From Candidatus Bathyarchaeota archaeon (GTDB taxonomy: Archaea; Thermoproteota; Bathyarchaeia; TCS64; PIYN01): a stretch of DNA of 64,000 nt. The DNA is taken from assembly GCA_003601775.1 (NCBI GenBank), contig PIYN01000014.1, positions 10,479 through 74,478 on the forward strand, read 5' to 3'. The position numbers and the translations under genes are program-made. The notes beneath the pieces were generated by a model. The model saw only the letters and a program-made list of their open reading frames with translations. It was not told the origin of the DNA and ran no database searches. Shown one piece after another: positions 261 to 56,286 of this stretch (positions are counted from its first letter, which is position 1; each line of letters starts with the position of its first letter).

Positions 261-1250
261 CTACATCACATCCTCGTCGCTCTCTACCCCCCTCTCCGTG
301 ATCCTTATCGGGACCTCCCCCTCGGGGAGGAAGGGGCTGACGGTGAGCCGCGCGATGCGGGTCTCCCCCCTACCCTTGCGGAGGAAGATCCGAGTATGGC
401 TCATATGACCCAGGATATGCCCCCCGACGGGCGCGACCATCTTAGCGAAGAAGACGTCGGGCTGGGCCATCACCTGATTCGTGACGACGGCACAGGCGTT
501 GAAGGCCCTCGCCAGCCGGATGAGCTTATGTAGGTGCTTGTTCAACATCTGCTGCCTCGCGGCCAGCATCTCCCTCCCCAGGTACTCGCTCCTGAAGTGG
601 GAGGTGAGGCTGTCGATGATGATGAGCCTGATGTTGTTCTCCTTGATCACCTCATCTGCATTCTCCAGGAGGATCATCTGGTGGCTGGAGGTATAGGCCT
701 CCGCGTATATGATCCTCTTCAGGGCCTCCTTGGGGTCGAGGCCGAACCTGGGGGCGATCTGCATGATCCTATCCGTCCTGAAGGTATTCTCGGTGTCGAT
801 GTAGAGGGCCCCCCCATCGAGGCCGCCCTTCTCCGGCGGGAGCTGAACAGTTAGGCAGAGCTGCTGGCAGATCTGCGACTTCCCGGTCCCGAACTCCCCG
901 TAGAACTCAGTGATGGACTGGGTCTCGATCCCCCCAGCGAGGAGCTTGTCGAGGGCGCCGCATCCGGTCGTCAGCCTCCGGACGTTGCTCCTCAACTTGA
1001 TGAGCTCATCCCCCCTCACGAAGGTGATCGCCATGGACTTCCTGGCGGCCTCTATGATCTTCGCGGCCGTCGCCTCCCCGATCCCCGCCGCCGTGACCTC
1101 CTGGACGGCGGCCGTCGCGAGGGACTCGACGGTCTTGAAGCCGATCTGCCTGAGCTTTGAGGCTGTGGCAGGGCCTACCCCTGGGAGGTCCTCCAGGGTC
1201 TTGTACTTCGCCCTATAGTAGTCCATACGCTCCGAGGCCATTTTTCTCAC
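261..1250 (-). CDS. radA: DNA repair and recombination protein RadA (archaeal RecA/Rad51 homologue)
   Basis: 329 aa with N-terminal HhH region (LEDLPGVGPATASKL) and Walker A GEFGTGKSQ. Full-length similarity pattern to archaeal RadA, with no intein insertion. Confidence 0.9.
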   Translation of the reverse strand: MRKMASERMDYYRAKYKTLEDLPGVGPATASKLRQIGFKTVESLATAAVQEVTAAGIGEATAAKIIEAARKSMAITFVRGDELIKLRSNVRRLTTGCGALDKLLAGGIETQSITEFYGEFGTGKSQICQQLCLTVQLPPEKGGLDGGALYIDTENTFRTDRIMQIAPRFGLDPKEALKRIIYAEAYTSSHQMILLENADEVIKENNIRLIIIDSLTSHFRSEYLGREMLAARQQMLNKHLHKLIRLARAFNACAVVTNQVMAQPDVFFAKMVAPVGGHILGHMSHTRIFLRKGRGETRIARLTVSPFLPEGEVPIRITERGVESDEDVM

Positions 1251-1575: not shown

Positions 1576-1884
1576 CTACTGGACCTCTATATTCTCAGCT
1601 GGGAAACCCAGCTCGATGAGGATCTCCCTCACAGCCTCCCTGTGGTCTCCCTGGAGGAGGATCTTCTGGTTCTTCGCGGTCCCACCACATGCACACTTGG
1701 ACTTCAGCTTGGCCGCCAACTTGCTCAGCTTCATCTTCTTAGAATCGATCCCGTCGATGACCGTCATCGTCTTCCCCCACTTCCGCACCTCCAGCCTTAT
1801 ACGAATCCTCTGCTGCTCCTTCTCCATCTCCCCGCAGACACAAAGGTCCTTGGGCAGCCCGCAGACAGGACAGATCTCCGCCAT
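1576..1884 (-). CDS. translation initiation factor aIF1 / SUI1 homologue
   Basis: 102 aa with N-terminal CPVCGLPKDLCVCG zinc knuckle followed by a SUI1 fold region (IRIRLEVRKWGKTMTVIDGI...LQGDHREAVREILIELGF) typical of archaeal SUI1. Confidence 0.85.
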   Translation of the reverse strand: MAEICPVCGLPKDLCVCGEMEKEQQRIRIRLEVRKWGKTMTVIDGIDSKKMKLSKLAAKLKSKCACGGTAKNQKILLQGDHREAVREILIELGFPAENIEVQ

Positions 1885-1939: not shown

Positions 1940-2560
1940 TTATGAGGGCTGGAAGTATCTCTGGAGGAGGGAGAAGGCCTCCAGGGCGTCCTTCGCGTCG
2001 AGGATGATGACCGTGTTGGTGAAGCAGGAGATGAACTCGAGGATGTTGATGTTCCTCCCCGCGAGGAGCTGGGTGATGAAGGCGACGAACCCAGGCGTCC
2101 TCTCGACCTCAGGCGGACTCGTCAGGATGAGGGCCACCAGGTTGCTCGTGACCTCGACGTCCTCCCCCAGTGCATCCTCGTCCTTTAGCTCCGTCTGGTC
2201 GACTATGTAGACGTGGCTATCCGTCAGGTGGGCGGTGAAGAGATAGGGGATCTTTAACTCCTCGCGGGAGATGATCACAGCTATCTTATCCTGTAGCCGG
2301 ACCTTCGTCCTCCGCAGCAGGTCTATCACCTTCTCCTCCTGCAGCCCCTTCCTCCGGGCCAGCTCATCCCTGACCCTGAGCACAGCAGCCTTAACGGCCT
2401 CGGGGCTCCCCCTCCCAATCTCCTCGTGCAGCATCCTGGAGAGGGCTGAGTAGTTCACTATGTTCAGCCTCAGCGCGTCGACGAGGAAGGGCCTCTTCTC
2501 CAGGATCTCCTTCACGAGTCGTGCGACCGATTTTGACTTATTTGAAACACTATTGCTCAT
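1940..2560 (-). CDS. putative amino-acid-responsive transcriptional regulator (N-terminal wHTH plus C-terminal ACT-like domain)
   Basis: 206 aa. The N-terminal helix-rich DNA-binding-like region and C-terminal beta-alpha-beta-beta-alpha pattern resemble archaeal ACT-domain regulators of amino acid metabolism. It is divergent from argG. Confidence 0.5.
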   Translation of the reverse strand: MSNSVSNKSKSVARLVKEILEKRPFLVDALRLNIVNYSALSRMLHEEIGRGSPEAVKAAVLRVRDELARRKGLQEEKVIDLLRRTKVRLQDKIAVIISREELKIPYLFTAHLTDSHVYIVDQTELKDEDALGEDVEVTSNLVALILTSPPEVERTPGFVAFITQLLAGRNINILEFISCFTNTVIILDAKDALEAFSLLQRYFQPS

Positions 2561-2576
2561 ATCTGCATTAAATATG

Positions 2577-2594
2577 TCATAAAATATATAAATT
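2577..2594 (+). promoter_or_regulatory. shared arg promoter motif TCATAAAATATATAAATT (copy 1, upstream of argG and of the divergent regulator gene)
   Basis: Identical 18-mer also at 5469..5486 upstream of argF. It contains a TATA-like ATATATAAA core about 45 nt upstream of the argG ATG. Confidence 0.45.
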
Positions 2595-2632: not shown

Positions 2633-3871
2633 ATGAGAATGGTGAAGAAGGTCGTCTTGGCCTATTCGGGCGGCCTGGACACGTCCGTCATGGTCAAGTG
2701 GATCCAGGAGCACTATGGGAGTGAGGTGGTGACCGTCACCCTCGACGTGGGGCAGGGGAAGGACCTGAAGGCGATCGAGGAGAAGGCCTGGATGCTCGGG
2801 GTCGTGAACCATTACTCCATCGACGCAAGGGAGGAGTTCGTGAACGACTACGTCGTCCCCGCCATCAAGGCGAACGCCCTGTACATGGATGCCTACCCCG
2901 TGAGCAGCTCCCTCTCCAGGCCCCTCATAGCGTCGAAGCTGGTGGAGGTCGCGGAGAAGGAGGGTGCCGACGCGGTGGCCCATGGGTGTACTGGGAAGGG
3001 GAACGACCAGGTGAGGTTTGATATCACGATAAAGTCGCTGAACCCTGACCTCAGGATAATTGCGCCGGTCAGGGAGTGGAATATGACGAGGGATAAGGAG
3101 ATCGAGTGGGCGAAGGAGCACGGCGTCCCCGTCCCAGTCACGGCGGACTCCCCCTACAGTATCGACCAGAACCTATGGGGGCGGTCCATAGAGTGCGGCA
3201 TCATAGAGCACCCCGACGTGGAGCCCCCCGAGGAGGTCTTCGAGTGGACTGCCCCCATAGAGGAGACGCCCGACGAGCCCGAGTACATCACCATAGGCTT
3301 CGAGGAGGGGGCGCCCGCCTCCCTCAACGGGGAGGAGATGACCCCCCTGGAGATCATCGAGGAGGTCCAGGGGATAGCCGGGAAGCATGGAGTCGGGCGC
3401 ATAGACCACATGGAGGATCGGATAGTCGGCCTGAAGTCCCGTGAGGTATATGAGGCCCCGGCCGCCACCGTCATCCTGAAGGCTCATGCCGATTTGGAGA
3501 AGATGGTGCTGACCCGCCACGAGAAGCTCTTCAAGAGGCACGTCGACCACGAGTGGGCCGTGCTGGTCTACACTGGGCTCTGGATGGACCCCCTCAAGGA
3601 GGCCCTCGACGCCTTCATAGAGAAGACCCAGGAGAGGGTGACGGGTGAGGTGACCGTCAAGCTCTTCAAGGGGAACGCCCAGGTGGTGGGGAGGTCCTCC
3701 CCCTCCTCCCTCTACGACCTCAGCCTCGCGACCTACGATATCACCACCACCTTCGATCAGACCGCTGCAATCGGGTTCATCGAGCTCTGGGGGCTGCCGA
3801 CCGTCACTTACTGGGCCCTGAAGAGGAAGCAGGGGCGGGTTCCTCTCCAACAGAGGACGGCGATACCTTAG
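2633..3871 (+). CDS. argG: argininosuccinate synthase
   Basis: PP-loop AYSGGLDTS near the N-terminus and the ArgG signature GCTGKGNDQVRF; about 410 aa. The start is possibly the second ATG at 2639 (MVKKVVLAYSGG). Confidence 0.93.
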   Translation: MRMVKKVVLAYSGGLDTSVMVKWIQEHYGSEVVTVTLDVGQGKDLKAIEEKAWMLGVVNHYSIDAREEFVNDYVVPAIKANALYMDAYPVSSSLSRPLIASKLVEVAEKEGADAVAHGCTGKGNDQVRFDITIKSLNPDLRIIAPVREWNMTRDKEIEWAKEHGVPVPVTADSPYSIDQNLWGRSIECGIIEHPDVEPPEEVFEWTAPIEETPDEPEYITIGFEEGAPASLNGEEMTPLEIIEEVQGIAGKHGVGRIDHMEDRIVGLKSREVYEAPAATVILKAHADLEKMVLTRHEKLFKRHVDHEWAVLVYTGLWMDPLKEALDAFIEKTQERVTGEVTVKLFKGNAQVVGRSSPSSLYDLSLATYDITTTFDQTAAIGFIELWGLPTVTYWALKRKQGRVPLQQRTAIP

Positions 3872-5371
3872 GTCGGGTCCAACGTCGATAGGTAGCCCTC
3901 AACAGCCTTCCTCAGGCGCCTCTTAGCCGCCTCCACGGCGGACCTCTTCCCCTCCAACTCGCCTCTACACGCCTCAAGCCTCTTCCGCCGGTCCCTGAGC
4001 ATCCTCTCCACCTCCTCCGGCCGTGGACCTCCTCGTGACCTCCTCCTCGAGAGGCTGGAGAGGGGGTCGGTCACCTCTCTGAGGAACCCCTCATCCACCT
4101 CGACCCGTCTCCCGAGGACCCTGAACGAGGCCTCCGCCACCTCATCCGGCTTGAGGTCGCGGAGGCTCCCGCCCTCCTCCAGCGTCTTCTTCACGAGGGC
4201 CGCGACGAGCCAAGGGGAGTCCCTTCTCCGCGACGAGGCCCTCCGCGACGTCGAGGGCGATGGCGAGGCTCCCCTCAACTGCCTCTCGCATCCGACCCTC
4301 CCTCACCTTCAGGGTGGAGATGATGCCCGTCATGACCTCGAGGCACGTCTTAACAGTGTCGAGGCACCTCCAGAGGGGGGGCTTCGTACCCTGCAGGTCC
4401 TGATAGTAGCCGCTGGGGACCCCCTTCACCATCGTCAGCAGCTCCATCAGGGCGCCGTAGACCTCCCCCGTCTTCCCTCGGATGAGCTCCAGGGTCGAGG
4501 GGTTCTTCTTCTGGGGCATGATGCTCGAGGAGGAGGAGTACTCGTCGGCGACCTCGACGTAGCCGAACTCCGCCGTGGACCACTCGATGAGGTCTGCGGC
4601 GACGCGGCTCAGATGGGACATGAGGATCGCGGAGACGGAGGCCGTCTCGATGGCCCAGTCCCTCCCACTCGTCGCGTCGATGGAGTTCTCGACGAGGCCG
4701 TCGAAGCCCAAGAGCTCCGTCGTCCTCCCCCTGTCGATGTTGATGCTGGTGCCGCCCACGGGCCCGGACCCGAGGGGGTTCCTGTTGACCCTGCCGTAGC
4801 AGTCCATGAGGCGCTGGAAGTCGCGGAGGAGGGCGTCGGCGTAGGCCATCAGGTAGTGGGCGAAGGTCCCGATCTGTGCATGCTGGCCGTGGGTATAGAG
4901 GATCATCACCGTCTCCCTGTGCCGATCTGCCTTCTCCAGGAGGGCCTCGACGAAGTCCAGGACTCTCTCACCCATCTCCAGGATCTCGTCCCTGACCCTG
5001 AGGCGTACGTCGACCATCACCTGGTCGTTTCGACTGCGTCCCGTGTGGAGCATCCCCCCCGCCTCTATGCCTATCTTCTTGATGACCCGGGCCTCGATGT
5101 ACTCGTGGATGTCCTCGAACTCCGCCCCTATCTCCACCTCACCCCTCCGCCACTCGCCCCGGATCTCCTCCAGCGCGGAGAGGATGAGCTTCAACGCCTC
5201 TAAGGGGATGACGCCCTGCTCGTGGAGCATGATGTCATGGGCCTCCGTCCCATCTATGTCGTCCTCGAAGATCCTGAGGTCCTCGACGACGGAGGTATGG
5301 AACCGGGCGGTCCTATCATCGAACCTCTTATCCAGCCTCGACCTGAACAAGCTGCCCGTCAGGGATACCAC
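3868..5371 (-). pseudogene. argH: argininosuccinate lyase, reading frame split by a frameshift near 4200-4240 (ORFs 4142..5371 and 3868..4278)
   Basis: The upstream ORF carries the fumarate-lyase signature GSSIMPQKKNPS and ends ...LVAEKGLP then reads out of frame. The remaining C-terminus (...LVAALVKKTLEEGGSLRDLKPDEV...) continues in another frame in the overlapping ORF. Confidence 0.8.
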
Positions 5372-5468
5372 CGAACACCTATAATCTTCTTACGACTAAA
5401 AAGCATACGGATCTGCCCATGAAGTCATCTCATATGTGACAGTTTTGAGTGCAATTGCAACATTCATA

Positions 5469-5486
5469 TCATAAAATATATAAATT
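5469..5486 (+). promoter_or_regulatory. shared arg promoter motif TCATAAAATATATAAATT (copy 2, between divergent argH and argF)
   Basis: Exact repeat of 2577..2594, about 55-70 nt upstream of the argF start. Confidence 0.45.
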
Positions 5487-5540
5487 CGTTGTAGGGTTTG
5501 TCCTCTGAAATCCTTGGAGAGAGGTTGAGTAGGTGATGGG

Positions 5541-6476
5541 GTGGACGAGGGGAGGCGAATGGTCAGGCATCTTTTAAGCGACTTCGACCTCAACAGGGAG
5601 GAGATCCTGGAGATCCTGGACCTCGCCGAGGAGATGAAAGGGGACCCGGGTAGATATGGGGATGCGCTCAGGGGGAAGACCCTGGTCATGCTCTTCGAGC
5701 TGCCGTCCCTCAGGACGAGGGTCTCCTTCGAGGCGGCTATGACCCAGATGGGGGGACACGCCATCTTCTACAGCATCGCCGGAGGGAGCTTCACGAGGGG
5801 CGAGACCCTGAGGGACGGCGTGAGGGTCCTGAGCAGGTACGCCGACTGCATCATGGCCCGGGTCTTGAGGCAGGAGGACATCGAGAGGATCGGGGAGGTG
5901 GCCTCCGTCCCCGTCATCAACGGGATGACGATGAAGTACCACCCCTGCCAGAACATCGCTGACCTCCTCACCATCAGGGAGAAGAAGGGGACCTTGAAGG
6001 GTCTGAAGATCGCCTACGTGGGAGACGGCGGGTGCAACACGGCCCACTCCACCATCATCGGCTGCAGCAACGTCGGGATGGACGTGACGGTCGTCTGCCC
6101 GGAGGGGGCGAGGTACAGCCCCGACCCCGAGATCCTGAGGAGGGCGAGGGAGCGGGCGTCGGGGAGGATAGAGGTCTGCCACGACCCCCTCGAGGGCGTG
6201 GAGGGGGCGGACGTCATCTACACGGATACCTGGATCAGCGCGGGAATGGAGGAGGAGAAGGAGGAGCGGATGAGGGTCTTCCCACCCTTCCAAGTCAACT
6301 CGGAGCTGGTGGGGAGGGCGAAGGAGGACTGCATCGTGATGCACTGCCTCCCAGCCCATAGGGGCTACGAGATCACGGACGAGGTGATGGACGCCCCCTA
6401 CTCCGCCGTCCTCGACCAGGCCGGGAACAGGATGCACACAGAGAAGGCGATCATCTACTGGCTCCTGAGGCAGTGA
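5541..6476 (+). CDS. argF: ornithine carbamoyltransferase
   Basis: Carbamoyl-phosphate binding motif SLRTR (within ...LFELPSLRTRVSFEAAMTQMGG) plus HPCQ and HCLP motifs; 311 aa. An alternative ATG at 5559 (MVRHLL) is preceded by GGAGG. Confidence 0.92.
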   Translation: MDEGRRMVRHLLSDFDLNREEILEILDLAEEMKGDPGRYGDALRGKTLVMLFELPSLRTRVSFEAAMTQMGGHAIFYSIAGGSFTRGETLRDGVRVLSRYADCIMARVLRQEDIERIGEVASVPVINGMTMKYHPCQNIADLLTIREKKGTLKGLKIAYVGDGGCNTAHSTIIGCSNVGMDVTVVCPEGARYSPDPEILRRARERASGRIEVCHDPLEGVEGADVIYTDTWISAGMEEEKEERMRVFPPFQVNSELVGRAKEDCIVMHCLPAHRGYEITDEVMDAPYSAVLDQAGNRMHTEKAIIYWLLRQ

Positions 6477-6558
6477 GGGAGTTCCATGGCGATCCAGGCG
6501 TTGGAGGCAGCCAGGGATGGGGTCCAGAGGGCTTCCCCCAGAGGAGGGGGAAAGGCCC

Positions 6559-7689
6559 ATGAAGCCTGTCTATAGGGCCGCCCTGGCGCTTGAGGACGGC
6601 TCGGTCTTTTTAGGATCCGGTTTCGGCTACCCCTGCGAGGTCTCAGGGGAGGTCGTCTTCAACACCGGGATGGTCGGCTACCCCGAGTCCCTGACCGATC
6701 CATCCTACTCCGGGCAGATCCTCGTCCAGACCTATCCCCTCATAGGGAACTACGGGGTCCCCTCCAGGGACATCGTGGACGGTTTCGGCCTGCCTCTGCA
6801 CTTCGAGTCCGATAGGATCCAGGTCAGGGGATACGTCGTCCACTCCCTCTCCCGGCATCCGAGCCACTGGTCCTCGAAGCGCCCCCTCAGCGAATGGCTC
6901 TACGAGGAGAGGATCCCCGGCCTCTCCGGGATAGATACAAGGAGATTGACGAAGAAGCTGAGGGTGAAGGGGACGATGCTCGGCGTCCTCAAGGTCGCCG
7001 AGGAGATCGACTTGGACGAGCTGGTCGGAAAGGTCAAGGAGGTCGAGGACCCGAATGAGGGGGACCTCGTCGCGGGCGTCACCGTCGAGGAGCCCGTCTT
7101 CCACGGGGCCGAGAGGTCCCCGAGGGTCGTCGTGATAGACTGTGGGGTGAAGTACGGGATACTGAGGGAGCTCCTGGCGAGGGGGGTGGGGGTGGTGAGG
7201 GTCCCCTACGACTACCCGCTCGACGGGATACTGGACCTCGACCCCTCAGGCATCGTGATCTCCAACGGCCCCGGGGATCCGAAGAGATGCGTCGAGACGA
7301 TAAGGACGGTGGAGGGGCTCCTTGAGACAGGCCTTCCCGTGATGGGGATCTGCCTTGGCAACCAGCTCCTCGCCCTCGCCGCCGGGGCCGATACCTATAA
7401 GCTCAAGTTCGGACATAGGGGGCAGAACCACCCCTGCCTCGACCTGTCCAGCGGCAGGTGCTACATCACGAGCCAGAACCACGGCTTCGCCGTTGACGCC
7501 GAGAGCCTGAGGGGGACGGGCTTCGAGGTCTCCTTCATCAACGCCAACGACAGGAGCGTCGAGGGGATCAGGCACGGGGAGAAGCCCGTCTTCGCGTCCC
7601 AGTTCCACCCAGAGGGGTCGCCTGGGCCCTACGACACGACCTTCCTCTTCGACGATTTCCTGAGGGAGGTGAGGGGATGCCGAGGTTAG
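6559..7689 (+). CDS. carA: carbamoyl-phosphate synthase small (glutamine amidotransferase) subunit
   Basis: CarA N-terminal domain (MKPVYRAALALEDGSVFLGSGFG) and class-I GATase catalytic motif GICLGNQLL. The ATG at 6559 is preceded by GGAGG. The ORF track extends it to 6517. Confidence 0.9.
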   Translation: MKPVYRAALALEDGSVFLGSGFGYPCEVSGEVVFNTGMVGYPESLTDPSYSGQILVQTYPLIGNYGVPSRDIVDGFGLPLHFESDRIQVRGYVVHSLSRHPSHWSSKRPLSEWLYEERIPGLSGIDTRRLTKKLRVKGTMLGVLKVAEEIDLDELVGKVKEVEDPNEGDLVAGVTVEEPVFHGAERSPRVVVIDCGVKYGILRELLARGVGVVRVPYDYPLDGILDLDPSGIVISNGPGDPKRCVETIRTVEGLLETGLPVMGICLGNQLLALAAGADTYKLKFGHRGQNHPCLDLSSGRCYITSQNHGFAVDAESLRGTGFEVSFINANDRSVEGIRHGEKPVFASQFHPEGSPGPYDTTFLFDDFLREVRGCRG

Positions 7690-10600
7690 AGTGGGTCAGG
7701 AAGGTCCTGATCCTGGGGAGCGGGGCGATAAAGATCGGGGAGGCGGGAGAGTTCGACTACTCGGGGGCTCAGGCCATTAAGGCCCTGAAGGAGGAGGGGA
7801 TCGAGGTCGTCCTCGTGAACCCAAATATCGCGACGATCCAGACGGATGAGAGGTTCGTCGACAGAGTCTACTTCGTCCCCATCACCCCCGAGTTCGTCGA
7901 GGACGTCATAAGGGAGGAGCGCCCCGACGGCATCCTCCTGGGCTTCGGGGGGCAGACGGCCCTCAACTGCGGGGTGGAGCTCGACGAGAGGGGCGTCCTG
8001 GAGAGGTACGGCGTGGAGGTCCTCGGGACGGGGATCGAGTCCATAAGGATCGCCGACGACCGCGACCGCTTCAGGGAGACGATGCTGAAGAATGGGGTGC
8101 CCATCCCCAGGAGTGGAAAGGCGACGAGCGTGGAGGAAGCCGTCGAGGTCGCCGAGCGGATCGGGTACCCCGTGATGGTGAGGGTCTCCTACACCCTCGG
8201 GGGGAGAGGGACGGGAGTCGCTGAGGATGAGAGGGACCTGAGGTACCTCGCCTGGAGGGGCCTCGCCCAGAGCAGGATAGGGCAGATCCTCGTCGAGGAG
8301 TATCTGGGGAAGTGGAAGGAGGTCGAGTACGAGGTGATGAGGGACTCCGCAGACAACTGCACCATCGTCTGCAACATGGAGAACTTAGACCCCATGGGCA
8401 TCCACACAGGGGAGAGCATCGTCGTCGCCCCCTCCCAGACCCTGACGAACAGGGAGTACCACCTCCTCCGTTCGACGAGTTTCAAGGTCGTGAGGGCCCT
8501 CGGCATCGTGGGGGAGTGCAACATCCAGTTCGCCCTCGACCCCGACGGCGAGGAGTTCAAGGTCATAGAGGTGAACTCCCGCCTCTCCAGGAGCTCCGCC
8601 CTCGCCTCCAAGGCGACGGGCTATCCCATCGCCTATATCGCCGCGAAGCTCGCCATAGGCTACACCCTCCCGGAGCTCATGAACAAGGTCACGGGGGTCA
8701 CGACGGCCTGCTTCGAGCCGGCCCTCGACTACGTCGTCGTCAAGATCCCGAGGTGGGACTTCCAGAAGTTCAGGCGGGTGGACCGGGAGATCGGGACGCA
8801 GATGAAGTCCGTGGGGGAGGTCATGGCCATCGGGAGGAACTTCAAGGAGGCGATCCAGAAGGCCGTCAGGATGCTCAACATCGGACGGGAGCTGACGGAT
8901 GAGGGGGAGGAAGAGAGCGAGGCCAAGATCCTCTACATGCTCAAGCACCCGACGGACGAGCGCCTCTTCTACATCATCAAGGCCCTGAGAAGGGGGATGA
9001 CCCCTGAGGAGATCCACAGACTGACGGGGATCGACCCCTGGTTCCTCCACGAGCTCAAGGAGATAGTGGAGCTCCACGAGTCTCTGAAGAGGAGCCCCCT
9101 GACGCCGGGGCTCCTCAGGAGAGCTAAGCAGCTGGGCTTCTCTGACAGGAAGATCGGGGAGCTGACGGGGAGGAGTGAGGGGGAGGTGCGCGAGATGAGG
9201 CGGTCCCTCGGCATCACCCCCGTGGTGAAGCAGATCGACACGCTGGCCGCCGAGTGGCCAGCCGTGACCAACTACCTCTACATGACCTATAACGGCGACG
9301 AGGACGACATAGACTTCAGGCCGGAGAGGAAGGTCATCGTCCTCGGCTCCGGCTGCTACAGGATCGGCTCGAGCGTCGAGTTCGACTGGTGCTGCGTGAA
9401 CATGGCCTGGGCCCTGAAGGAGCGGGGGGTCGAGGAGGTGATCATGGTGAACTACAACCCTGAGACCGTCTCGACGGACTACGACGTCCTGGACAAGCTC
9501 TACTTCGAGGAGCTGACCCTGGAGAGGGTGTTGGATATCGTGGAGAAGGAGAGGCCCCTGGGCGTCGTCGTCAGTGTCGGGGGGCAGATCCCCAACAACC
9601 TGGCCCTCGGCCTTGCGAGGAACGGCGTGAGGATCCTCGGAACCTCGGCGGAGGACATCGACAGGGCAGAGGACCGGTCAAAGTTCAGCAGGCTCCTGGA
9701 CGACCTCGGGATCGAGCAGCCCCCTTGGAGCAGGCTGGAGGACCTAGAGAGCGCTAAAGCCTTCGCCCGGGAGATCGGCTACCCCGTCCTGATAAGGCCC
9801 TCCTACGTCCTCTCAGGCTCCGCGATGAGGGTCGTCTTCGACGAGGAGCACCTGGAGGAGGCGCTGAGGGAGGCGGCGAGGGTCTCGAAGGAGTACCCCG
9901 TCGTCGTCTCAAAGTTCATCTTAGGGGCCAGGGAGGTGGAGGTCGACGCCGTCTCCGATGGGGAGCACGTCTTCATCGGCGCGATCATCGAGCATGTGGA
10001 GAACGCCGGCGTCCACTCTGGCGACGCGACGATGTCCATACCCCCGCTCTCACTCCCCGAGGAGGTAAAGGAGGAGATCCGGCGCTGCACCAGGAGGATC
10101 GCGAGGAGCCTGAGGATCAGGGGCCCCTTCAACATCCAGTACCTCGTGAAGGATGGGCGGATCTACGTCATAGAGTGTAACCTCAGGGCCTCGAGGAGCA
10201 TGCCCTTCGTCTCCAAGACCGTGGGCGTCAACCTCATGGAGGTGGCCGCCGACGCCATCCTCGGCCGGGGGGTCGTGGATGGGGAGGGGGAGCCCAGGAG
10301 GTGGGGCGTCAAGACCCCCCAGTTCTCCTTCATGAGGCTCGAGGGGGCGGACCCCGTGACGGGGGTGGAGATGGTCTCTACGGGGGAGGTCGCCTGCTTC
10401 GGGGAGGACTTCGAGGAGGCCTTCCTGAAGTCCCTCATCGCCTCCGGCATAAAGATCCCCGAGGAGGGAGACCCCATCCTCATCACCGTCGGGGGGGAGA
10501 AGGACAGGATCATCCCCCTGGCGAGGAGGCTCGCCGAGGCCGGGTTCAGGCTCTACGCGACGGAGCACACGGGGGAGGCCCTCCGGCGGGAGGGGGTGCC

Positions 10601-10883
10601 CTGCGAGGTCCTGAGGAAGGTGAGTGAGCCCGGGGACCCGAACATACTGGATTACCTCATGGAGGGCAAGATCAAGATGGTCATAAACATCCACGGCCTG
10701 AACGACGGACCCCTCTCGAGGCAGATACTGGAGGACGAGTACCTCATCAGGAGGAGGGCCGTGGAGTTCGGGGTCCCCGTCATCACAAACCTGGAGCTGG
10801 CCGACGCCCTCACGAGGATTCTCGTTAGTCGGAGGGGGAAGAGGTTAATAAAAGAGGTGGGGCATACTTCTCCCCGTCGATAG
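7677..10883 (+). CDS. carB: carbamoyl-phosphate synthase large subunit
   Basis: 1068 aa with duplicated ATP-grasp halves (KVLILGSGAIKIGEAGEFDYSG ... KVIVLGSGCYRIGSSVEFDW) and a C-terminal MGS-like domain; overlaps the carA stop. Confidence 0.95.
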   Translation: MPRLEWVRKVLILGSGAIKIGEAGEFDYSGAQAIKALKEEGIEVVLVNPNIATIQTDERFVDRVYFVPITPEFVEDVIREERPDGILLGFGGQTALNCGVELDERGVLERYGVEVLGTGIESIRIADDRDRFRETMLKNGVPIPRSGKATSVEEAVEVAERIGYPVMVRVSYTLGGRGTGVAEDERDLRYLAWRGLAQSRIGQILVEEYLGKWKEVEYEVMRDSADNCTIVCNMENLDPMGIHTGESIVVAPSQTLTNREYHLLRSTSFKVVRALGIVGECNIQFALDPDGEEFKVIEVNSRLSRSSALASKATGYPIAYIAAKLAIGYTLPELMNKVTGVTTACFEPALDYVVVKIPRWDFQKFRRVDREIGTQMKSVGEVMAIGRNFKEAIQKAVRMLNIGRELTDEGEEESEAKILYMLKHPTDERLFYIIKALRRGMTPEEIHRLTGIDPWFLHELKEIVELHESLKRSPLTPGLLRRAKQLGFSDRKIGELTGRSEGEVREMRRSLGITPVVKQIDTLAAEWPAVTNYLYMTYNGDEDDIDFRPERKVIVLGSGCYRIGSSVEFDWCCVNMAWALKERGVEEVIMVNYNPETVSTDYDVLDKLYFEELTLERVLDIVEKERPLGVVVSVGGQIPNNLALGLARNGVRILGTSAEDIDRAEDRSKFSRLLDDLGIEQPPWSRLEDLESAKAFAREIGYPVLIRPSYVLSGSAMRVVFDEEHLEEALREAARVSKEYPVVVSKFILGAREVEVDAVSDGEHVFIGAIIEHVENAGVHSGDATMSIPPLSLPEEVKEEIRRCTRRIARSLRIRGPFNIQYLVKDGRIYVIECNLRASRSMPFVSKTVGVNLMEVAADAILGRGVVDGEGEPRRWGVKTPQFSFMRLEGADPVTGVEMVSTGEVACFGEDFEEAFLKSLIASGIKIPEEGDPILITVGGEKDRIIPLARRLAEAGFRLYATEHTGEALRREGVPCEVLRKVSEPGDPNILDYLMEGKIKMVINIHGLNDGPLSRQILEDEYLIRRRAVEFGVPVITNLELADALTRILVSRRGKRLIKEVGHTSPRR

Positions 10884-10898: not shown

Positions 10899-11210
10899 AT
10901 GTCTCAGGTAAGGGAACTCCTCGAGATAGTGGAGAGGTCGATGCCCTTCCCCCCGAGGGTCATCGCCGGCTATAGCAGGCTCAGCCAGGTCTTCACGAGC
11001 GGGGACCTGGCCCGGGTCTGCGGGATCCCCCCCTCCACGGCGAAGTTCTACGTGAGGAAGATGGTCGCCCTCAGGATGGTGACGAAGATACCCAACAGGA
11101 AGAAGTACCAGAAGTACGCCAACGCCAAAGAGTTCTCCAGCTGGCTCAAGGACCTCATAAGGCTCGTCATCGTCCCCCTGGAGCGGGGGGAGATCGAAGT
11201 CCCGGAGTAG
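10899..11210 (+). CDS. small winged-helix (HTH) protein, putative transcriptional regulator
   Basis: 103 aa; predicted HTH SGDLARVCGIPPSTAKFYVRKMVALRMV; 15 nt after carB and upstream of the hjc/lon pair. Confidence 0.4.
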   Translation: MSQVRELLEIVERSMPFPPRVIAGYSRLSQVFTSGDLARVCGIPPSTAKFYVRKMVALRMVTKIPNRKKYQKYANAKEFSSWLKDLIRLVIVPLERGEIEVPE

Positions 11211-49837: not shown

Positions 49838-50158
49838 ACCTCTCCTCATCTTATCCTTCCCTTTCTCATACCTGAACGGAGATCCTAAAAGGGTGACTGA
49901 GGGGATCAAGGAAGGTAATAAATCAAATCTAGAGATGGTCTGTAGAAGAACCATCAAATGAGGGATAGACCCCCTAAAGTCATGAGGCGCTCTGTCACCC
50001 TTAAACGATAGGTCAAGGATTTTATTTTAATTGAATATTTGAAATTTGAGAAGAATTCAACGATATAAGTCGAACTAAGAATTTAAATGGTTAAATTTAT
50101 ATATCAAACACCCTCCTTAAGTTAGGATTGATAGGTTAAATAAAATAGGTGGATCTGG

Positions 50159-50335
50159 ATGGGAGAGGAAGAGAAGGAGGACTATACAGTCCCTGTGTAC
50201 ATCGGCCTGAAACACTCAATCGTCGTCGAGTTGGACAATATCGCCGCCGAGTGGGGAACTACAGTGAGCAGGGCTTGTCAGAGGATCATAACAGAGTACG
50301 TGAAGAACTGGGTTAGCGAAAAGGAGAAGAAATAG
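50159..50335 (+). CDS. ribbon-helix-helix (CopG/Arc-like) small DNA-binding protein candidate (58 aa)
   Basis: Sub-threshold ORF in the AT-rich spacer: MGEEEKEDYTVPVYIGLKHSIVVELDNIAAEWGTTVSRACQRIITEYVKNWVSEKEKK, showing a beta-strand then two helices characteristic of RHH proteins. Confidence 0.4.
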   Translation: MGEEEKEDYTVPVYIGLKHSIVVELDNIAAEWGTTVSRACQRIITEYVKNWVSEKEKK

Positions 50336-50341
50336 CATCAC

Positions 50342-50551
50342 TCATCGAGGATCATCCCTTTTTGCCGTTGTTCCAAATCGAAGTTTATAATACATCACAA
50401 GGATGAAGACGCCCACAAAAGAGAGAATTAAAGTGTATAATGCGACCATTGCGGGGCCGACTTCTTCAATCAATCTTCCCAAAAAATGGGCCGCGAAGGT
50501 GATAAGTACCATCAAAAGAGTTGCGATTATCATCTGTTTACGCGTTAACAT
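50342..50551 (-). CDS. small membrane protein (2 predicted TM helices, 69 aa)
   Basis: Hydrophobic segments IIATLLMVLITFAAHFL and ALYTLILSFVGVFILVMYY; AT-rich codon usage. Confidence 0.35.
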   Translation of the reverse strand: MLTRKQMIIATLLMVLITFAAHFLGRLIEEVGPAMVALYTLILSFVGVFILVMYYKLRFGTTAKRDDPR

Positions 50552-50624
50552 AGGGTCCCTTTGTTAGTGGACTTAACGGCCATATATTAAAATATTGATG
50601 AAATATATTGTTTCTTGACGGGGA

Positions 50625-52082
50625 TTGGATAGGATGTTGAGTTTACGATATTACATTGATACGGAACTTCAAGAAGAGGCCTTTGGGGCTTTGTTTGATT
50701 TCATCATGAAGTACTATCTCTACCGAAATCCCCAGTATTATAAAGATATCAGGAGGACGCGGGTGGGGGATGTCGAGGTATTGGAGTTCACGGCTATCCC
50801 GAGGCATAAGAAGTGGTCTATGGAGGTCGAGGTGCGGGGAGTTAAGCCTCTCGAGGTGAGGATGAGGCCCAGCAACAGGCTCGTGCCTATGACCGTCATT
50901 AATAGGATAAGGACCCATCTATTGATGGGGGTCATCACCTTCGAGGAGAGCGTCGCGAGGGGCAGAACTTACTTTGCATGGGTTGGTAGGGGGAAGGCGA
51001 TCGACGAGAGGGAGCTGAGTCGAGGCAAGAAGATGATATATGCGCTCTTCACGGGGAACATGATGCTCTCTTACCTCACCTTCATCTTAGCAAGTTCCCT
51101 ATTCCTCCCGGTCTTCAAATTTTACATCCCAATAGCCTTCCTACTCTTTCAATTCGTATTAATGATTTTGTCTCACAGGATACTCATACTATCCGGAGAC
51201 TGGATAGTAGACCAGGAGAACTCCACCGTTCACATCCTAAAGTTTCACATCCCCACGAGGGTCTTGATGGAGATCCCCGCCGAGATAGGGATCAGGAGCT
51301 TGATGGAGATAAGGGAGGAGATCTACAGGAGGACCCTCAAGGTCGGGAGGAGCATAGATCGCCAGACGGCTCTTGAGGTCTTCTCAATGTATGGGATAGA
51401 CGTCGTCCCTGAGGAGACCGAGGCCAAGGCCGTGAACATCTATGAGTTGACTAAGTCTGCTGTGGAGAGGTTTCACCTCCCGATGCCGAGGTTAGCGGTG
51501 GTGAACACCGTCGTACCAAACGCCCTCTCGGCAGGTCCCAGCCCGCGGTTAGGCACGATCCTCATATCCACAGGCCTATTGGCTAGACTCGATGAGGATG
51601 AGTTACTCGGGATTCTGGGACATGAACTCAGTCACCTCAAGAACAGGGACTCCCTCGTTCTATTCATATTCTCATCGATCGCCTATCTTCTCCAGCTACG
51701 CCTATTTCCACTCCTTCTCTGGTTCTTCTGGTTCACCTTCTTCCCCTACCTCTATATCTACCTATTCATGGCCCTGATCATGGGGGGCGTCTACTTCGTA
51801 TCTAAGATCCTTGAGGCCAGGTGTGACCTCGAGTCGGCGATCTACGTAGGGAAGCCCGATGCCCTCGCAAGGGCCCTGAAGAAGCTGGGCTTTCAGAAAT
51901 TCAGATTTGAGAAGATATCCGGCATAAAGATCCAGGACTGGTTCCGATTAGAGCCTCATCCTCCAATCAGTTTCAGGATCTCCCGTCTGGAGGCCCTGGA
52001 GTCGCCGGGGAAGATCAGGTCCCCCCTCATCCAATCCATGAGGGACTGCCTCTCAGGTTTCTTCTCCTCGCTTAGAATATAA
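50625..52082 (+). CDS. membrane zinc metallopeptidase, M48 (HtpX/Ste24-like) with about 170-aa N-terminal extra domain
   Basis: HExxH in LGILGHELSHLKNRD flanked by hydrophobic helices; lower GC and A/T-ending codons compared with neighbours. Confidence 0.7.
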   Translation: MDRMLSLRYYIDTELQEEAFGALFDFIMKYYLYRNPQYYKDIRRTRVGDVEVLEFTAIPRHKKWSMEVEVRGVKPLEVRMRPSNRLVPMTVINRIRTHLLMGVITFEESVARGRTYFAWVGRGKAIDERELSRGKKMIYALFTGNMMLSYLTFILASSLFLPVFKFYIPIAFLLFQFVLMILSHRILILSGDWIVDQENSTVHILKFHIPTRVLMEIPAEIGIRSLMEIREEIYRRTLKVGRSIDRQTALEVFSMYGIDVVPEETEAKAVNIYELTKSAVERFHLPMPRLAVVNTVVPNALSAGPSPRLGTILISTGLLARLDEDELLGILGHELSHLKNRDSLVLFIFSSIAYLLQLRLFPLLLWFFWFTFFPYLYIYLFMALIMGGVYFVSKILEARCDLESAIYVGKPDALARALKKLGFQKFRFEKISGIKIQDWFRLEPHPPISFRISRLEALESPGKIRSPLIQSMRDCLSGFFSSLRI

Positions 52083-52183
52083 TCTTCTACTGTTCCCTGG
52101 GGTCCATCTCCCAGTTCCTGTAGGCTATGATCGATTCTCTTAAAAGATTAAAATAGTTAGGGACGTTATATTATCGAGTAGAT

Positions 52184-52497
52184 ATGGCTGAGAGGTATAG
52201 GGTGAAGATAACGGTCTTGAAGAGGTCGAGGCCGGAGGAGGTCTTCAGGGAGTCGCCTATCAAGGGTGGGCCGACCCGGGCCTGTGAGGGCTTTAGGAGT
52301 TCATCGTCGATGAGTCGGGGAGGATGCCGGAGGGTTTCTGCTCCTGGGCCTGGGATGATATATCCAAGGTGGTGAACGTCCTCCGCTTCGGCGGGAACTT
52401 CCCCTGGTTCGAGGAAGAAGGCATCTCCATAAACTGCTGCACCGATGGGCTTAGACCAGTCATCTTCAAGATAGAGCGCATCCAAGCGGGGGATTAA
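52184..52497 (+). pseudogene. TIGR04076-like small protein gene interrupted by a frameshift near 52295
   Basis: N-terminal part MAERYRVKITVLKRSRPEEVFRESPIKGGPTRACEGF (track ORF 52184..52375) continues in another frame as EFIVDESGRMPEGFCSWAWDDISKVVNVLRFGGNFPWFEEEGISINCCTDGLRPVIFKIERIQAGD, ending at 52497. Confidence 0.45.
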
Positions 52498-52531: not shown

Positions 52532-53671
52532 TTGAGAGTCCTCGTCTTAGGCTGCGGTAATATAGGGTCCGTCATCGCAAGGGACTTCGCCGAGTCCATG
52601 GAGGAGTCTCAGATAGTCGTCGCTGATAGGGAAGAAGAGAGGGCCAAGAAGGTAGCTTCGAGCATAGAGGATGCAGCCTGGATCACTGTAGACGCGACGG
52701 ACTACGCTGGATTAGTGGAAGTTCTCAGGGGATTCGACTTAGTCATCGGGGCGCTCCCCGGCGACTACGGCTACCAGGCCCTCAAGGCCGCCATAGAGGC
52801 GGGAGTCGATATGGTGGATGTCTCCTTCACCCCCGAGGACCCCCTTGAATTGGACAGGGCGGCAAAGGAGGCGGGGGTCACCATCATCCCCGACTGCGGT
52901 GTAGCCCCCGGCCTCTCCAATATGCTGGTGGGGTACGCCTCAGCCAAGCTCGACCGGGTTCTGGAGGCCCACATCTTGGTCGGGGGTCTTCCAGAGCATC
53001 CCGTCCCTCCACTGGGGTACACTGTCACTTGGTCGGCGGAGGGACTCATCGACGAGTACATGAGGGATGTACGCATCGTCGAGGGTGGGCGCCTCACCAT
53101 CGTCCCCGCCCTGAGTGGATTGGAGGAGATCGACTTCCCCGGCGTGGGGAGGCTCGAGGCCTTCTACACCGATGGCCTCCGGACACTTCTCCACACCCTG
53201 AGGGGGGTGGAAAGTATGTGGGAGAAGACCCTCAGGTATCCGGGTCACGTGGAGAAGATAAGGCTCCTCAAGGCACTGGGCTTCTTCGACGAGGAGCCTG
53301 TGACCGTCGGGAGGGTTGAGGTCTCTCCCCGCCTCGTGACCGCCAGGCTCTTGGAGAGGAGCCTGAGGAGGCCTGAGGTCGGCGATCTCCTCGTGATGAG
53401 GGTCGAGGTGGCCGGTGAGAGGGGGGGTGAGGAGGTTCGGTTTAGGTATTACCTCCTTGATCGATACGATAGGGAGAGGGGAGTGACGGCGATGGCGAGG
53501 ACCACGGCATACACAGCATCCATCGTCGCTGGTAAGTTGGCACGGAGCATCATCAAGGAGAGAGGGATAGTCCCGCCGGAGAGGCTCGGCATGGACGAGG
53601 GCCTCTTCAAGGAGATCCTATCGGCTCTCAGGGATAGAGGGGTAAGGGTCGAGGAGTTCCATGTAGAATAG
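52532..53671 (+). CDS. saccharopine dehydrogenase family NAD(P)-dependent oxidoreductase (paralogue 1)
   Basis: N-terminal Rossmann motif VLVLGCGNIGSV and the Sacchrp_dh C-terminal domain; 379 aa; TTG start. Confidence 0.75.
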   Translation: MRVLVLGCGNIGSVIARDFAESMEESQIVVADREEERAKKVASSIEDAAWITVDATDYAGLVEVLRGFDLVIGALPGDYGYQALKAAIEAGVDMVDVSFTPEDPLELDRAAKEAGVTIIPDCGVAPGLSNMLVGYASAKLDRVLEAHILVGGLPEHPVPPLGYTVTWSAEGLIDEYMRDVRIVEGGRLTIVPALSGLEEIDFPGVGRLEAFYTDGLRTLLHTLRGVESMWEKTLRYPGHVEKIRLLKALGFFDEEPVTVGRVEVSPRLVTARLLERSLRRPEVGDLLVMRVEVAGERGGEEVRFRYYLLDRYDRERGVTAMARTTAYTASIVAGKLARSIIKERGIVPPERLGMDEGLFKEILSALRDRGVRVEEFHVE

Positions 53672-55032: not shown

Positions 55033-55113
55033 CTCCTCCCCTTCGCCCTCAGCCCTTAATCTGAGCAATAGTTTAAATATATAGTGAATCAACAGTAGGA
55101 TGGGTGAAGGTGG

Positions 55114-56286
55114 ATGAAGGTCGCCGTTCTGGGGGCTGGGCTTATGGGTCCAGCCCTCGCTTGGGACTGCACTGAGAGCGATGAGGTCTCGGAGGTTCTG
55201 CTCTGCGATATCGACCCCGTGAAGCTGGAGAGGGCCGCAGGGTGGATGGGGAACCCCGAGAAGCTCTCGACGAAGCGGCTGGATGTAACGGATAGGGAGG
55301 CCCTCGTCGAGACCTTGAGGGACTACGACGTCGTGGGCATCGCCCTCTTGAGGTGGCTGAACGTGGAGGCGATGAGGGGGGCCATCGAGGCAGGAGTAAG
55401 CGCCGTCGACTTGGCATCCCCCCCAAGGGATGCCTGGTCCGAGATCGACGGGCTCGCGAAGGAGGCGGGCGTCACGGTGATCCCGGGGTGCGGCGTCGAG
55501 CCGGGCCTCAGCGACCTCCTCGCCGCCTATGGTATGGACCAGTTGGACGAGGTTGAGGCAGTGGATATCTGGTGCGGGGGGATACCCCAAGACCCGAAGC
55601 CACCTCTGGATTACAAGATCGTGTTCGGCGGACCCTATCTCCCGCTGCGGCCTGGGATGGTGAAGGTCATCGAGGATGGGGAGGAGAGGGAGGTGAGGAG
55701 GTATACCCTCGGCGAGCCCATCGAGTTCGAGGGTATCGACAGGCCTCTGGAGTGCTTCTATGACGGCTTCCCCGAGACCCTCTATGAGCATGAGAAGTTC
55801 AAGAGGGTGAAGCGGTGCACCGAGAAGACGGTGAGATACTCGGGGTACTGTGAGAAGGTCAACTTCCTGGATCAGTGCGGCCTCCTGAGTCGGGAGCCTA
55901 TAGAGTTCAAGGGACAGAAGATCGTCCCCTTCGAGGTCTTCAGCAAGATCATCTACCCGAAGGTGAGGATGGAGGAGGGTGAGAAGGACCTCACCGTCCT
56001 GAGGGTCGTGGTGGAGGGGAGGAAGGACGGGAGGGAGACCGTATACAGGTTTGAGATGGTGGACTACTACGACGAGGAGAGGAGGATGACCTCCATGGCC
56101 CGTACGACCAGCTATACCGCTGCCATAGTCGCGCGGATGATCGGGAGGGGGGAGATCGCTGAGAAGGGGCTTGTCCCACCGGTGAGGGTCATCAGGGGGA
56201 GGCTCTTCGAGAGGCTCATGGCTGAGCTCGCAGAGAAGGGGGTCGTCATAAAGGAGAGCGTAGAGGTGAGGAGGACCCTCCCATAG
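55114..56286 (+). CDS. saccharopine dehydrogenase family NAD(P)-dependent oxidoreductase (paralogue 2)
   Basis: MKVAVLGAGLMG Rossmann start; same domain order and many shared blocks with 52532..53671 (for example MARTT(A/S)YTA(S/A)IVA). Confidence 0.75.
   Translation: MKVAVLGAGLMGPALAWDCTESDEVSEVLLCDIDPVKLERAAGWMGNPEKLSTKRLDVTDREALVETLRDYDVVGIALLRWLNVEAMRGAIEAGVSAVDLASPPRDAWSEIDGLAKEAGVTVIPGCGVEPGLSDLLAAYGMDQLDEVEAVDIWCGGIPQDPKPPLDYKIVFGGPYLPLRPGMVKVIEDGEEREVRRYTLGEPIEFEGIDRPLECFYDGFPETLYEHEKFKRVKRCTEKTVRYSGYCEKVNFLDQCGLLSREPIEFKGQKIVPFEVFSKIIYPKVRMEEGEKDLTVLRVVVEGRKDGRETVYRFEMVDYYDEERRMTSMARTTSYTAAIVARMIGRGEIAEKGLVPPVRVIRGRLFERLMAELAEKGVVIKESVEVRRTLP

Follow-up and report, generated by a model that had tools for sequence, protein, structure and literature searches.

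A probable BRE/TATA core promoter of arginine genes, conserved in Bathyarchaeia and probably shared with a divergent DUF7523-ACT gene

The stretch of Candidatus Bathyarchaeota DNA analysed in our study (64,000 nucleotides of contig PIYN01000014.1, assembly GCA_003601775.1; hereafter the window) carries two identical copies of an AT-rich element of 18 nucleotides (nt). One copy lies between argG and a divergent gene for a protein with DUF7523 and ACT domains (DUF7523-ACT, a candidate regulator, whose gene we call the regulator gene for brevity), and the other lies between argH and argF. We consider it likely that this 18-mer is the conserved core promoter, made of a transcription factor B recognition element (BRE) and a TATA box, of argG and of argF-carA-carB, and that its TATA box is shared with the DUF7523-ACT gene. 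In the mechanism that we propose, the TATA-binding protein (TBP) would bind the near-symmetric TATA of the first copy, and transcription factor B (TFB), placed on either side of it, would set the direction: a leaderless regulator mRNA would start near 2562 on the minus strand, and an argG mRNA with a short leader and a Shine-Dalgarno site would start near 2615 on the plus strand. The second copy would be a paralogue of this module and would drive argF-carA-carB. The locus is, in our assessment, a bidirectional archaeal core promoter of an already known kind, with a probable overlapping regulatory site.

An exact-match scan of the window confirmed the report, made in a preliminary description of this DNA, that the 18-mer TCATAAAATATATAAATT occurs exactly twice: both copies are on the plus strand (Table 1), and no third match is found in the window even when three mismatches are allowed. 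Both are oriented alike with respect to the genes, copy 1 pointing towards argG and copy 2 towards argF-carAB, and the identity between them reaches 20 of 21 nt in the form AT[G/A]TCATAAAATATATAAATT. The chance expectation for the 18-mer was 0 in 100 dinucleotide-preserving shuffles, first-order Markov simulations gave a mean of ~0.2 repeated 18-mers of any kind, and the pair is the sole non-coding exact repeat of at least 18 nt in the window. The GC content of the window is ~0.61, and the two spacers that hold the motif are among its most AT-rich islands.

Our comparisons draw on 7 contigs with identical proteins, 6 lineages identified by exact-protein look-up, 1 genome match, and 80 metagenome loci that were retrieved with an alignment of the DUF7523-ACT protein. 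The 52 unique regulator/argG spacers of this set align almost without gaps, with the consensus CAT aTtTGtaaCA nn TATGTC rY AA rr TATA w AA, in which 23 positions within 38 nt have an information content of at least 1.2 bits. Across these orthologous spacers the motif is made up of RTGYC, the BRE-like CRYAAR and TATAWAA; its combined form, derived from 51 spacers, is RTGYCRYAARRTATAWAA, with or without TGTAACA. The most conserved block other than TATA is TATGTC. Two 7-nt quasi-palindromes, Box A (TGTAACA) and Box B (ATGTCAT), have their centres 10-11 nt apart, and the regulator/argG spacer holds no long dyad. We dropped a description of the two boxes as direct repeats 11 nt apart, since self-similarity at offset 11 was not raised, and two short quasi-palindromes are preferred.

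The position of the TATA box is fixed with respect to the regulator gene. The spacer is 78 nt long in the window, where it contains one TATA-like element only; its orthologues measure 62-85 nt. The offset from the regulator ATG to the start of TATAWA is identical in 54 of the 55 unique argG-adjacent spacers. The centre of the 8-bp TATA lies 28.5 nt from this ATG and a median of 50.5 nt (range 34.5-57.5 among the 55 spacers) from the argG ATG. Because transcription in archaea starts ~26-27 nt downstream of the TATA centre, the regulator mRNA, with its start near the position given above, is predicted to be leaderless or nearly so, and the argG mRNA is predicted to start at ~2613-2616 with a leader of ~24 nt. 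A Shine-Dalgarno-like site precedes argG in 44 of the 55 orthologous leaders. The same geometry places the two predicted starts ~53 nt apart, and a single TATA at these distances from the two start codons makes it most likely that one TATA box fires both ways. On the side opposite to the argG BRE, the window is A-rich (AATAAA on the minus strand), but this position is poorly conserved across lineages. The BRE/TATA element proposed in the preliminary description is supported by this geometry and by the comparison of more than 50 lineages: the motif splits into CRYAAR and TATAWAA, and the start-codon distances fit transcription starts ~26 nt to either side of the TATA centre.

The two halves of the motif differ in their association with arginine genes. 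The sequence RTGYCRYAA, which consists of the 5' half of the 18-mer and the 3 nt upstream of it, is present in 49 of 51 unique argG-adjacent spacers, in both argF-adjacent ones, and in none of the 16 unique spacers of loci that lack arg genes. The corresponding figures are 50/51, 2/2 and 14/16 for a TATA-like element, and 37/51, 0/2 and 10/16 for a TG-N3-CA box at the regulator start. Box B is found only in arg-adjacent spacers, and Box A is retained in arg-less lineages too. CRYAARR, with its invariant AA, stands immediately 5' of the TATA in 49 of the 51 argG-adjacent spacers and is missing where that side has no arg gene. Where arg genes are lacking, the regulator proteins form at least four clusters, so the absence of the 5' half does not go back to a single event. 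Since the TATA-like element stays in arg-less spacers, we assign the TATA half to the promoter of the regulator gene itself in all lineages; the BRE-side half is present only with an arg gene transcribed in its direction.

The motif is restricted to these promoters in the DNA available to us. Three regular expressions of differing stringency gave 32, 53 and 72 matches in 794 kb (the window and 95 Bathyarchaeia loci), all of them at regulator/argG or argF promoters, save 2 of the 72, which lie in a regulator-upstream spacer whose other neighbour is off the contig. In these 794 kb, all of which surround the same locus, the extended motif stands at no other gene's promoter, and the promoters of radA, SUI1, Lon and the gene of a 103-residue protein (hyp103) conserve merely a TATA core of ~4-7 nt. 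The motif therefore does not appear to be a generic promoter of these genomes; a motif scattered before many unrelated genes is what the preliminary description had named as its refutation. In a wider scan of genome contigs, the degenerate 20-mer TRTCRTAAAATATATAAAYY matched at least 119 stretches, almost all in AT-rich bacteria, and a scan of viral contigs, used as a gauge of noise, gave 24 chance matches. Two Bathyarchaeia sites are among the genome matches listed. The first, in a genome of the 64%-identity class (L065), is an exact ATGTCATAAAATATATAAATT before argG-argF, beside the regulator gene. The second, at 3294-3313 (-) of a locus from a lower-GC lineage (L074), consists of TATCATAAAATATATAAAC followed by TATCATAAAAC and separates a PadR-family gene from one for myo-inositol-1-phosphate synthase. 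The L074 site has no arg genes in its vicinity, which indicates that in other places the BRE/TATA core by itself can be used by genes of other functions. A scan for sigma-70 promoters and terminators was uninformative, the host being an archaeon.

The second copy has a history of its own. In the window and in four orthologous loci (L010, L159, L162, and L164), the flanks of the argG copy and of the argF copy are each orthologue-specific, which implies that the two copies were separate before these lineages diverged and that selection has preserved the core ever since. The argF copy thus appears to be an old paralogue of the promoter module, and ~15 core positions (CRTAAAATATATAAA) appear to be under purifying selection; the 18/18 identity within this genome would be this core plus three more matching bases. 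Among the five genomes that carry both copies, those of the window share the highest identity. The leaders that follow the two copies are also weakly alike (z = 4.0, 4 of 1000 shuffles in the window; marginal in L010 and L159), which is consistent with a duplicated promoter-leader cassette. A probable recombinant form was identified in L008 (9874-10000) and L009. When compared with positions 2558-2640 and 5450-5545 of the window, their spacer is chimeric, with a regulator-side left flank, the motif, and an argF-side right flank; argG and argH are gone, and the regulator gene, whose product is 84% identical to that of the window, is directly divergent from argF-carAB. This arrangement is most simply explained by a deletion of argG-argH through recombination between the two direct copies of the motif.

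The argF promoters of the window and of the same four orthologues share A(A/T)TTGTGRCA-N3-ATGTCRYAAAATATATAAAYY-GTTGYAGRG. An inverted repeat precedes the argF TATA by ~30 nt; it reads ACAATT-N8-AATTGT in the orthologues and takes the form listed in Table 1 in the window, where a perfect palindrome (TGCAATTGCA, 5450-5459, with TGCAAT/ATTGCA symmetry) overlaps it. The ACAATT-N8-AATTGT dyad is confined to argF promoters and absent from the regulator/argG spacer. The argF mRNA is predicted to start at ~5505-5509 (+), with a leader of ~53 nt. In relatives, this leader measures 55-142 nt; it holds the conserved blocks TCTAAA, CCTT...AGGTT, and GTTGGATGAG, and it partly resembles the argG leader. 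Two candidates for a regulatory function of the argF leader were rejected: first, a leader peptide or attenuator with arginine codons, given that the small upstream open reading frames vary among lineages and are not rich in arginine; and second, a conserved RNA structure, given that the hairpin is weak (-3 kcal/mol) with little covariation. No Rfam covariance model reached its gathering score anywhere in the window. The divergent argH gene has a TATA-like element of its own, CTTTTTAG at 5403..5396 (-), 24 nt before its GTG and with the same geometry as at the regulator gene; copy 2 is therefore not needed for argH, whose mRNA is predicted to be leaderless. The element is kept as CTTATTAG in L010, L159, L162, and L164.

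It is important to consider the points that weigh against a shared core promoter as the whole explanation. All transcription starts in these uncultured organisms are deduced from geometry, and the BRE was called by its resemblance to the general archaeal consensus and to a single other local promoter, that of SUI1 (AAA-NN-TTTA). The arg-less lineages may share some ancestry, so the absence of the 5' half from all 16 of their spacers does not amount to 16 independent events. In L162 and L164, the leaders of the two copies are not alike. Finally, conservation extends well past a normal BRE/TATA, and basal factors alone may not explain it. Since the conservation of TATGTC and TGTAACA far exceeds that of the neighbouring promoters, a specific factor probably also binds this promoter.

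This leads to a second explanation, which may coexist with the first and which we regard as possible, if on the unlikely side: the motif would be mainly an operator, at which an amino-acid-sensing transcription factor, likeliest DUF7523-ACT, occupies ATGTCAT/TGTAACA and the BRE/TATA of the arg promoters and of its own promoter, blocking or recruiting TBP/TFB according to the arginine level. Such a role would account for the 23 conserved positions, which are far above what the other promoters of the same loci show, for the location of TATGTC outside BRE and TATA, for the pair of closely spaced quasi-palindromes, and for the occurrence of sequences like Box A and Box B at argF promoters, where no regulator gene begins. 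Four observations argue otherwise: at least 16 unique loci without arg genes keep the regulator gene next to SUI1-radA, three of five distant family members lie in unrelated contexts, the 11-nt direct-repeat periodicity is unsupported, and the 20-mer pattern of L074 precedes PadR and inositol-1-phosphate synthase genes. The bacterial 18-bp ARG box TNTGAATWWWWATTCANW has no match at up to three mismatches in either arg spacer, its sole match in the window being at 55072. The proposal of a shared arg promoter or operator in the preliminary description is supported in its core-promoter part; an operator of the adjacent ACT protein with a response to arginine is conjectural, as the N-terminal domain of the protein has no match to a known DNA-binding fold and its gene persists beside SUI1-radA without arg genes.

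The DUF7523-ACT protein is nevertheless the first candidate regulator. Its gene is transcribed divergently from arg genes in the majority of Bathyarchaeia loci, and its AlphaFold model, with a predicted local distance difference test (pLDDT) score of 76, shows five helices at the N-terminus (residues 12-84) followed by an alpha/beta region, a tandem ACT module of ligand-binding type that resembles the regulatory domains of aspartokinase, the arginine sensor CASTOR1, and the C-terminal domain of ArgR. Modelled alone, the N-terminal domain reached a pLDDT of 77; it gave no significant Foldseek match (E above 2), no Pfam helix-turn-helix (HTH) family and no sequence relative in the PDB. The Pfam matches of the whole protein are DUF7523 and ACT_7 only, with no Arg_repressor, HTH_AsnC or RAM domain. 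The protein belongs to a small family of constant architecture, with 345 clusters at 50% identity and one member that carries a SAP domain. One distant member (L238, 162-3113) immediately precedes argG and a LysX/RimK-type ATP-grasp gene, and another (L247-L249, ~4681-6702) is encoded divergently to the operon of a polar amino-acid ABC transporter, neighbourhoods that favour the operator; a sixth contig with a distant member is too short to judge. Our literature search returned no paper that mentions DUF7523 and none on an ACT-domain arginine regulator in archaea. The second candidate is the hyp103 protein, conserved at the edge of the variable gene slot described below, which has a sequence that looks like a winged HTH (...TSGDLARVCGIPPSTAKFYVRKMVALRMVTKIPNRKKYQKY...) and weak matches to HTH_24 and HTH_20. 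In the most far-reaching form of the operator explanation, which we consider rather unlikely, DUF7523-ACT proteins would make up a hitherto unrecognised archaeal family of transcription factors that sense amino acids, a functional analogue of ArgR. The protein would bind TGTAACA and ATGTCAT flanking the shared TATA and would control its own leaderless gene and, in response to arginine or a precursor held in the tandem ACT module, argG and argF-carAB, its cassette having been duplicated and its copies recombined during the evolution of Bathyarchaeia.

A third explanation, which we judge unlikely, is that of a strong constitutive promoter copied once, in which the 18/18 identity stems from recent duplication or gene conversion and no arg-specific regulation exists. 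The near-ideal AT-rich BRE/TATA core, the degenerate match before unrelated genes in L074, the leading within-genome identity of the two window copies, and the evident recombination in L008/L009, which indicates that the copies can interact as repeats, are all compatible with it. However, the orthologue-specific flanks point to an early separation of the copies with the core still fixed, no other promoter in the 794 kb uses the motif, and the 5' half follows arg adjacency. As for a chance repeat, or what is left of a mobile or repeated element, that does not act as a promoter, AT-rich 18-mers do arise by chance, as the viral-contig matches and the 119 or more in genomes attest, but the expectation in the GC-rich window is zero, dozens of lineages have the motif before argG and argF in a fixed position and orientation, and there is neither a transposase or repeat-family signature nor an Rfam match, so the comparative data effectively refute it.

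Table 1. Coordinates of the genes and promoter elements discussed, with the basis of each assignment.
Feature	Position	Strand	Basis or remark
radA	261-1250	-	Pfam, conspecific contigs
SUI1/aIF1	1576-1884	-	Pfam, conspecific contigs
DUF7523+ACT_7 protein, 206 aa; predicted leaderless; candidate regulator	1940-2560	-	Pfam, conspecific contigs
Box A site, TGCATTA here (degenerate; family consensus TGTAACA)	2564..2570	.	Overlaps predicted regulator transcript start
Box B, quasi-palindrome ATGTCAT	2574..2580	.	Directly 5' of and overlapping BRE; information content, palindromicity peak
18-mer copy 1, in DUF7523-ACT/argG spacer; 3' end of ATGTCAT, BRE-like CATAAAA, TATA box	2577..2594	+	Exact match, orthologous spacers
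BRE-like CATAAAA, argG direction	2578..2584	+	Family consensus CRYAARR, AA invariant; information content
Probable shared TATA box: TATATAAA on +, canonical TTTATATA on -	2585..2592, centre 2588.5	both	Fixed offset, spacer scan
argG, argininosuccinate synthase, 410 aa	2639-3871	+	Pfam; start codon as in conspecific contigs
argH, divergent from argF, frameshifted	3868..5371, start 5371	-	Pfam, conspecific contigs
Upstream block: dyad ACAGTT 5439-5444 / AATTGC 5453-5458 and Box A-like TGCAACA 5456-5462	5439..5462	.	Aligned argF upstream sequences
Box B-like ATATCAT and BRE-like CATAAAA, argF promoter	5466..5476	+	Sequence, orthologues
18-mer copy 2, in argH/argF spacer	5469..5486	+	Exact match; kept at argF promoters of L010, L159, L162, L164, L008, L163
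Putative argF-carAB TATA box	5477..5484	+	Inferred from sequence; conserved in orthologues
argF 5560-6476, carA 6517-7689, carB 7677-10883; operon probably driven by copy 2	5560..10883	+	Pfam; order kept in L002, L008, L010
103-aa winged-HTH-like protein (hyp103), candidate regulator	10899-11210	+	15 nt after carB
Hjc, then Lon	downstream of 103-aa protein gene		Pfam, conspecific contigs

The gene calls around both divergent spacers proved correct when compared with Pfam and with conspecific contigs. The argH open reading frame is split into 4142-5371 (-) and 3868-4278 (-), with the break near 4212, where 14 nt (CCGAGAAGCCTATA) have been lost with respect to the conspecific contigs L001-L003, in which the protein has 501 residues; the resulting frameshift points to an argH pseudogene in this genome or else to an error of assembly. 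In related loci, tblastn searches identified a constant backbone, Lon-Hjc-hyp103-[variable slot]-DUF7523-ACT-SUI1-radA. The slot between hyp103 and the DUF7523-ACT gene (seen in L011, L163, L176, L187, L212, L222, and others) may contain argG; argG-argF; argG, argH, and argF; argG, argH, and argF-carAB; or argF-carAB. It may also be empty, or it may carry other cargo: a hybrid histidine kinase with a response regulator, an AsnC-type HTH protein, DDE transposases, or a leucine carboxyl methyltransferase. No further arginine genes (argC/J/B/D, lysW-type) were found in the annotated parts of the window (to ~35 kb and 45-56 kb) or in the variable slot of relatives.

Other features of the window were recorded as well. 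The remaining exact repeats of 18-28 nt all sit in coding sequence (27642/46759, 29272/48468, 60379/61222, and 14924/21872); the first two pairs belong to two paralogous sets of 2-oxoacid:ferredoxin oxidoreductase genes and suggest strongly conserved cofactor-binding segments or gene conversion. An island of low GC content at ~49900-52200 (0.47 vs ~0.61), in which AT-rich intergenic stretches are numerous and an M48 peptidase is encoded at 50625-52082, may be foreign DNA. Two neighbouring saccharopine-dehydrogenase-like paralogues lie at 52532-53671 and 55114-56286, and the motif stands at neither.

For Bathyarchaeia, a very abundant and uncultured lineage of sediments, no arginine regulator and almost no promoter architecture have been described. 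Our study delimits precisely a deeply conserved module, in which one TATA box would serve two genes, an arg-specific 5' half accompanies it, and a duplicate stands at a second operon. Recombinant proteins and synthetic DNA are enough to test the module and its two candidate regulators, so that the organism need not be cultivated. Should DUF7523-ACT prove to bind the module, what is now a domain of unknown function would define a new transcription factor family in archaea; otherwise, the motif would still be a clean bidirectional archaeal promoter under strong selection.

Among the closest known systems are the BRE-TATA-BRE promoters of Pyrococcus furiosus, in which a single TATA has been shown, in vivo as well as in vitro, to direct transcription both ways from starts 49-50 bp apart (PMC6640164). 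As in those promoters, a near-symmetric TATA lies between divergent genes in a compact spacer, with predicted starts ~50-53 nt apart; the BRE-like element on the argG side is A-rich, and so, in the window, is the opposite side. There are also differences. In Pyrococcus, most promoters of this kind produce antisense RNA without function, whereas both directions here would serve conserved protein genes. The geometry here is fixed in 54 of 55 spacers, the module is duplicated at a second operon, and ~15 further positions outside BRE and TATA are conserved. The starts at the present locus are predicted ones. The bacterial ArgR/ARG box system offers another parallel, a common cis-element that precedes several arginine and carbamoyl-phosphate genes and overlaps their core promoter. 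Unlike that system, neither promoter here matches an ARG box, DUF7523-ACT has no match to Arg_repressor, the transcription machinery is archaeal, and the C-terminal part of DUF7523-ACT is a tandem ACT of aspartokinase type rather than the ArgR hexamerisation domain. Archaeal amino-acid-responsive regulators of the Lrp or feast/famine regulatory protein (FFRP) type, such as LysM and LrpA, bind beside or over BRE/TATA. With these systems the locus shares a small regulator-like gene divergent from biosynthetic genes and conserved boxes directly upstream of the target BRE; the candidate site also overlaps the predicted transcription start of the regulator gene itself, which suggests autoregulation. 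In contrast to Lrp/AsnC regulators, DUF7523-ACT has neither HTH_AsnC nor RAM, and with an unclassified N-terminal fold it is a candidate DNA binder only.

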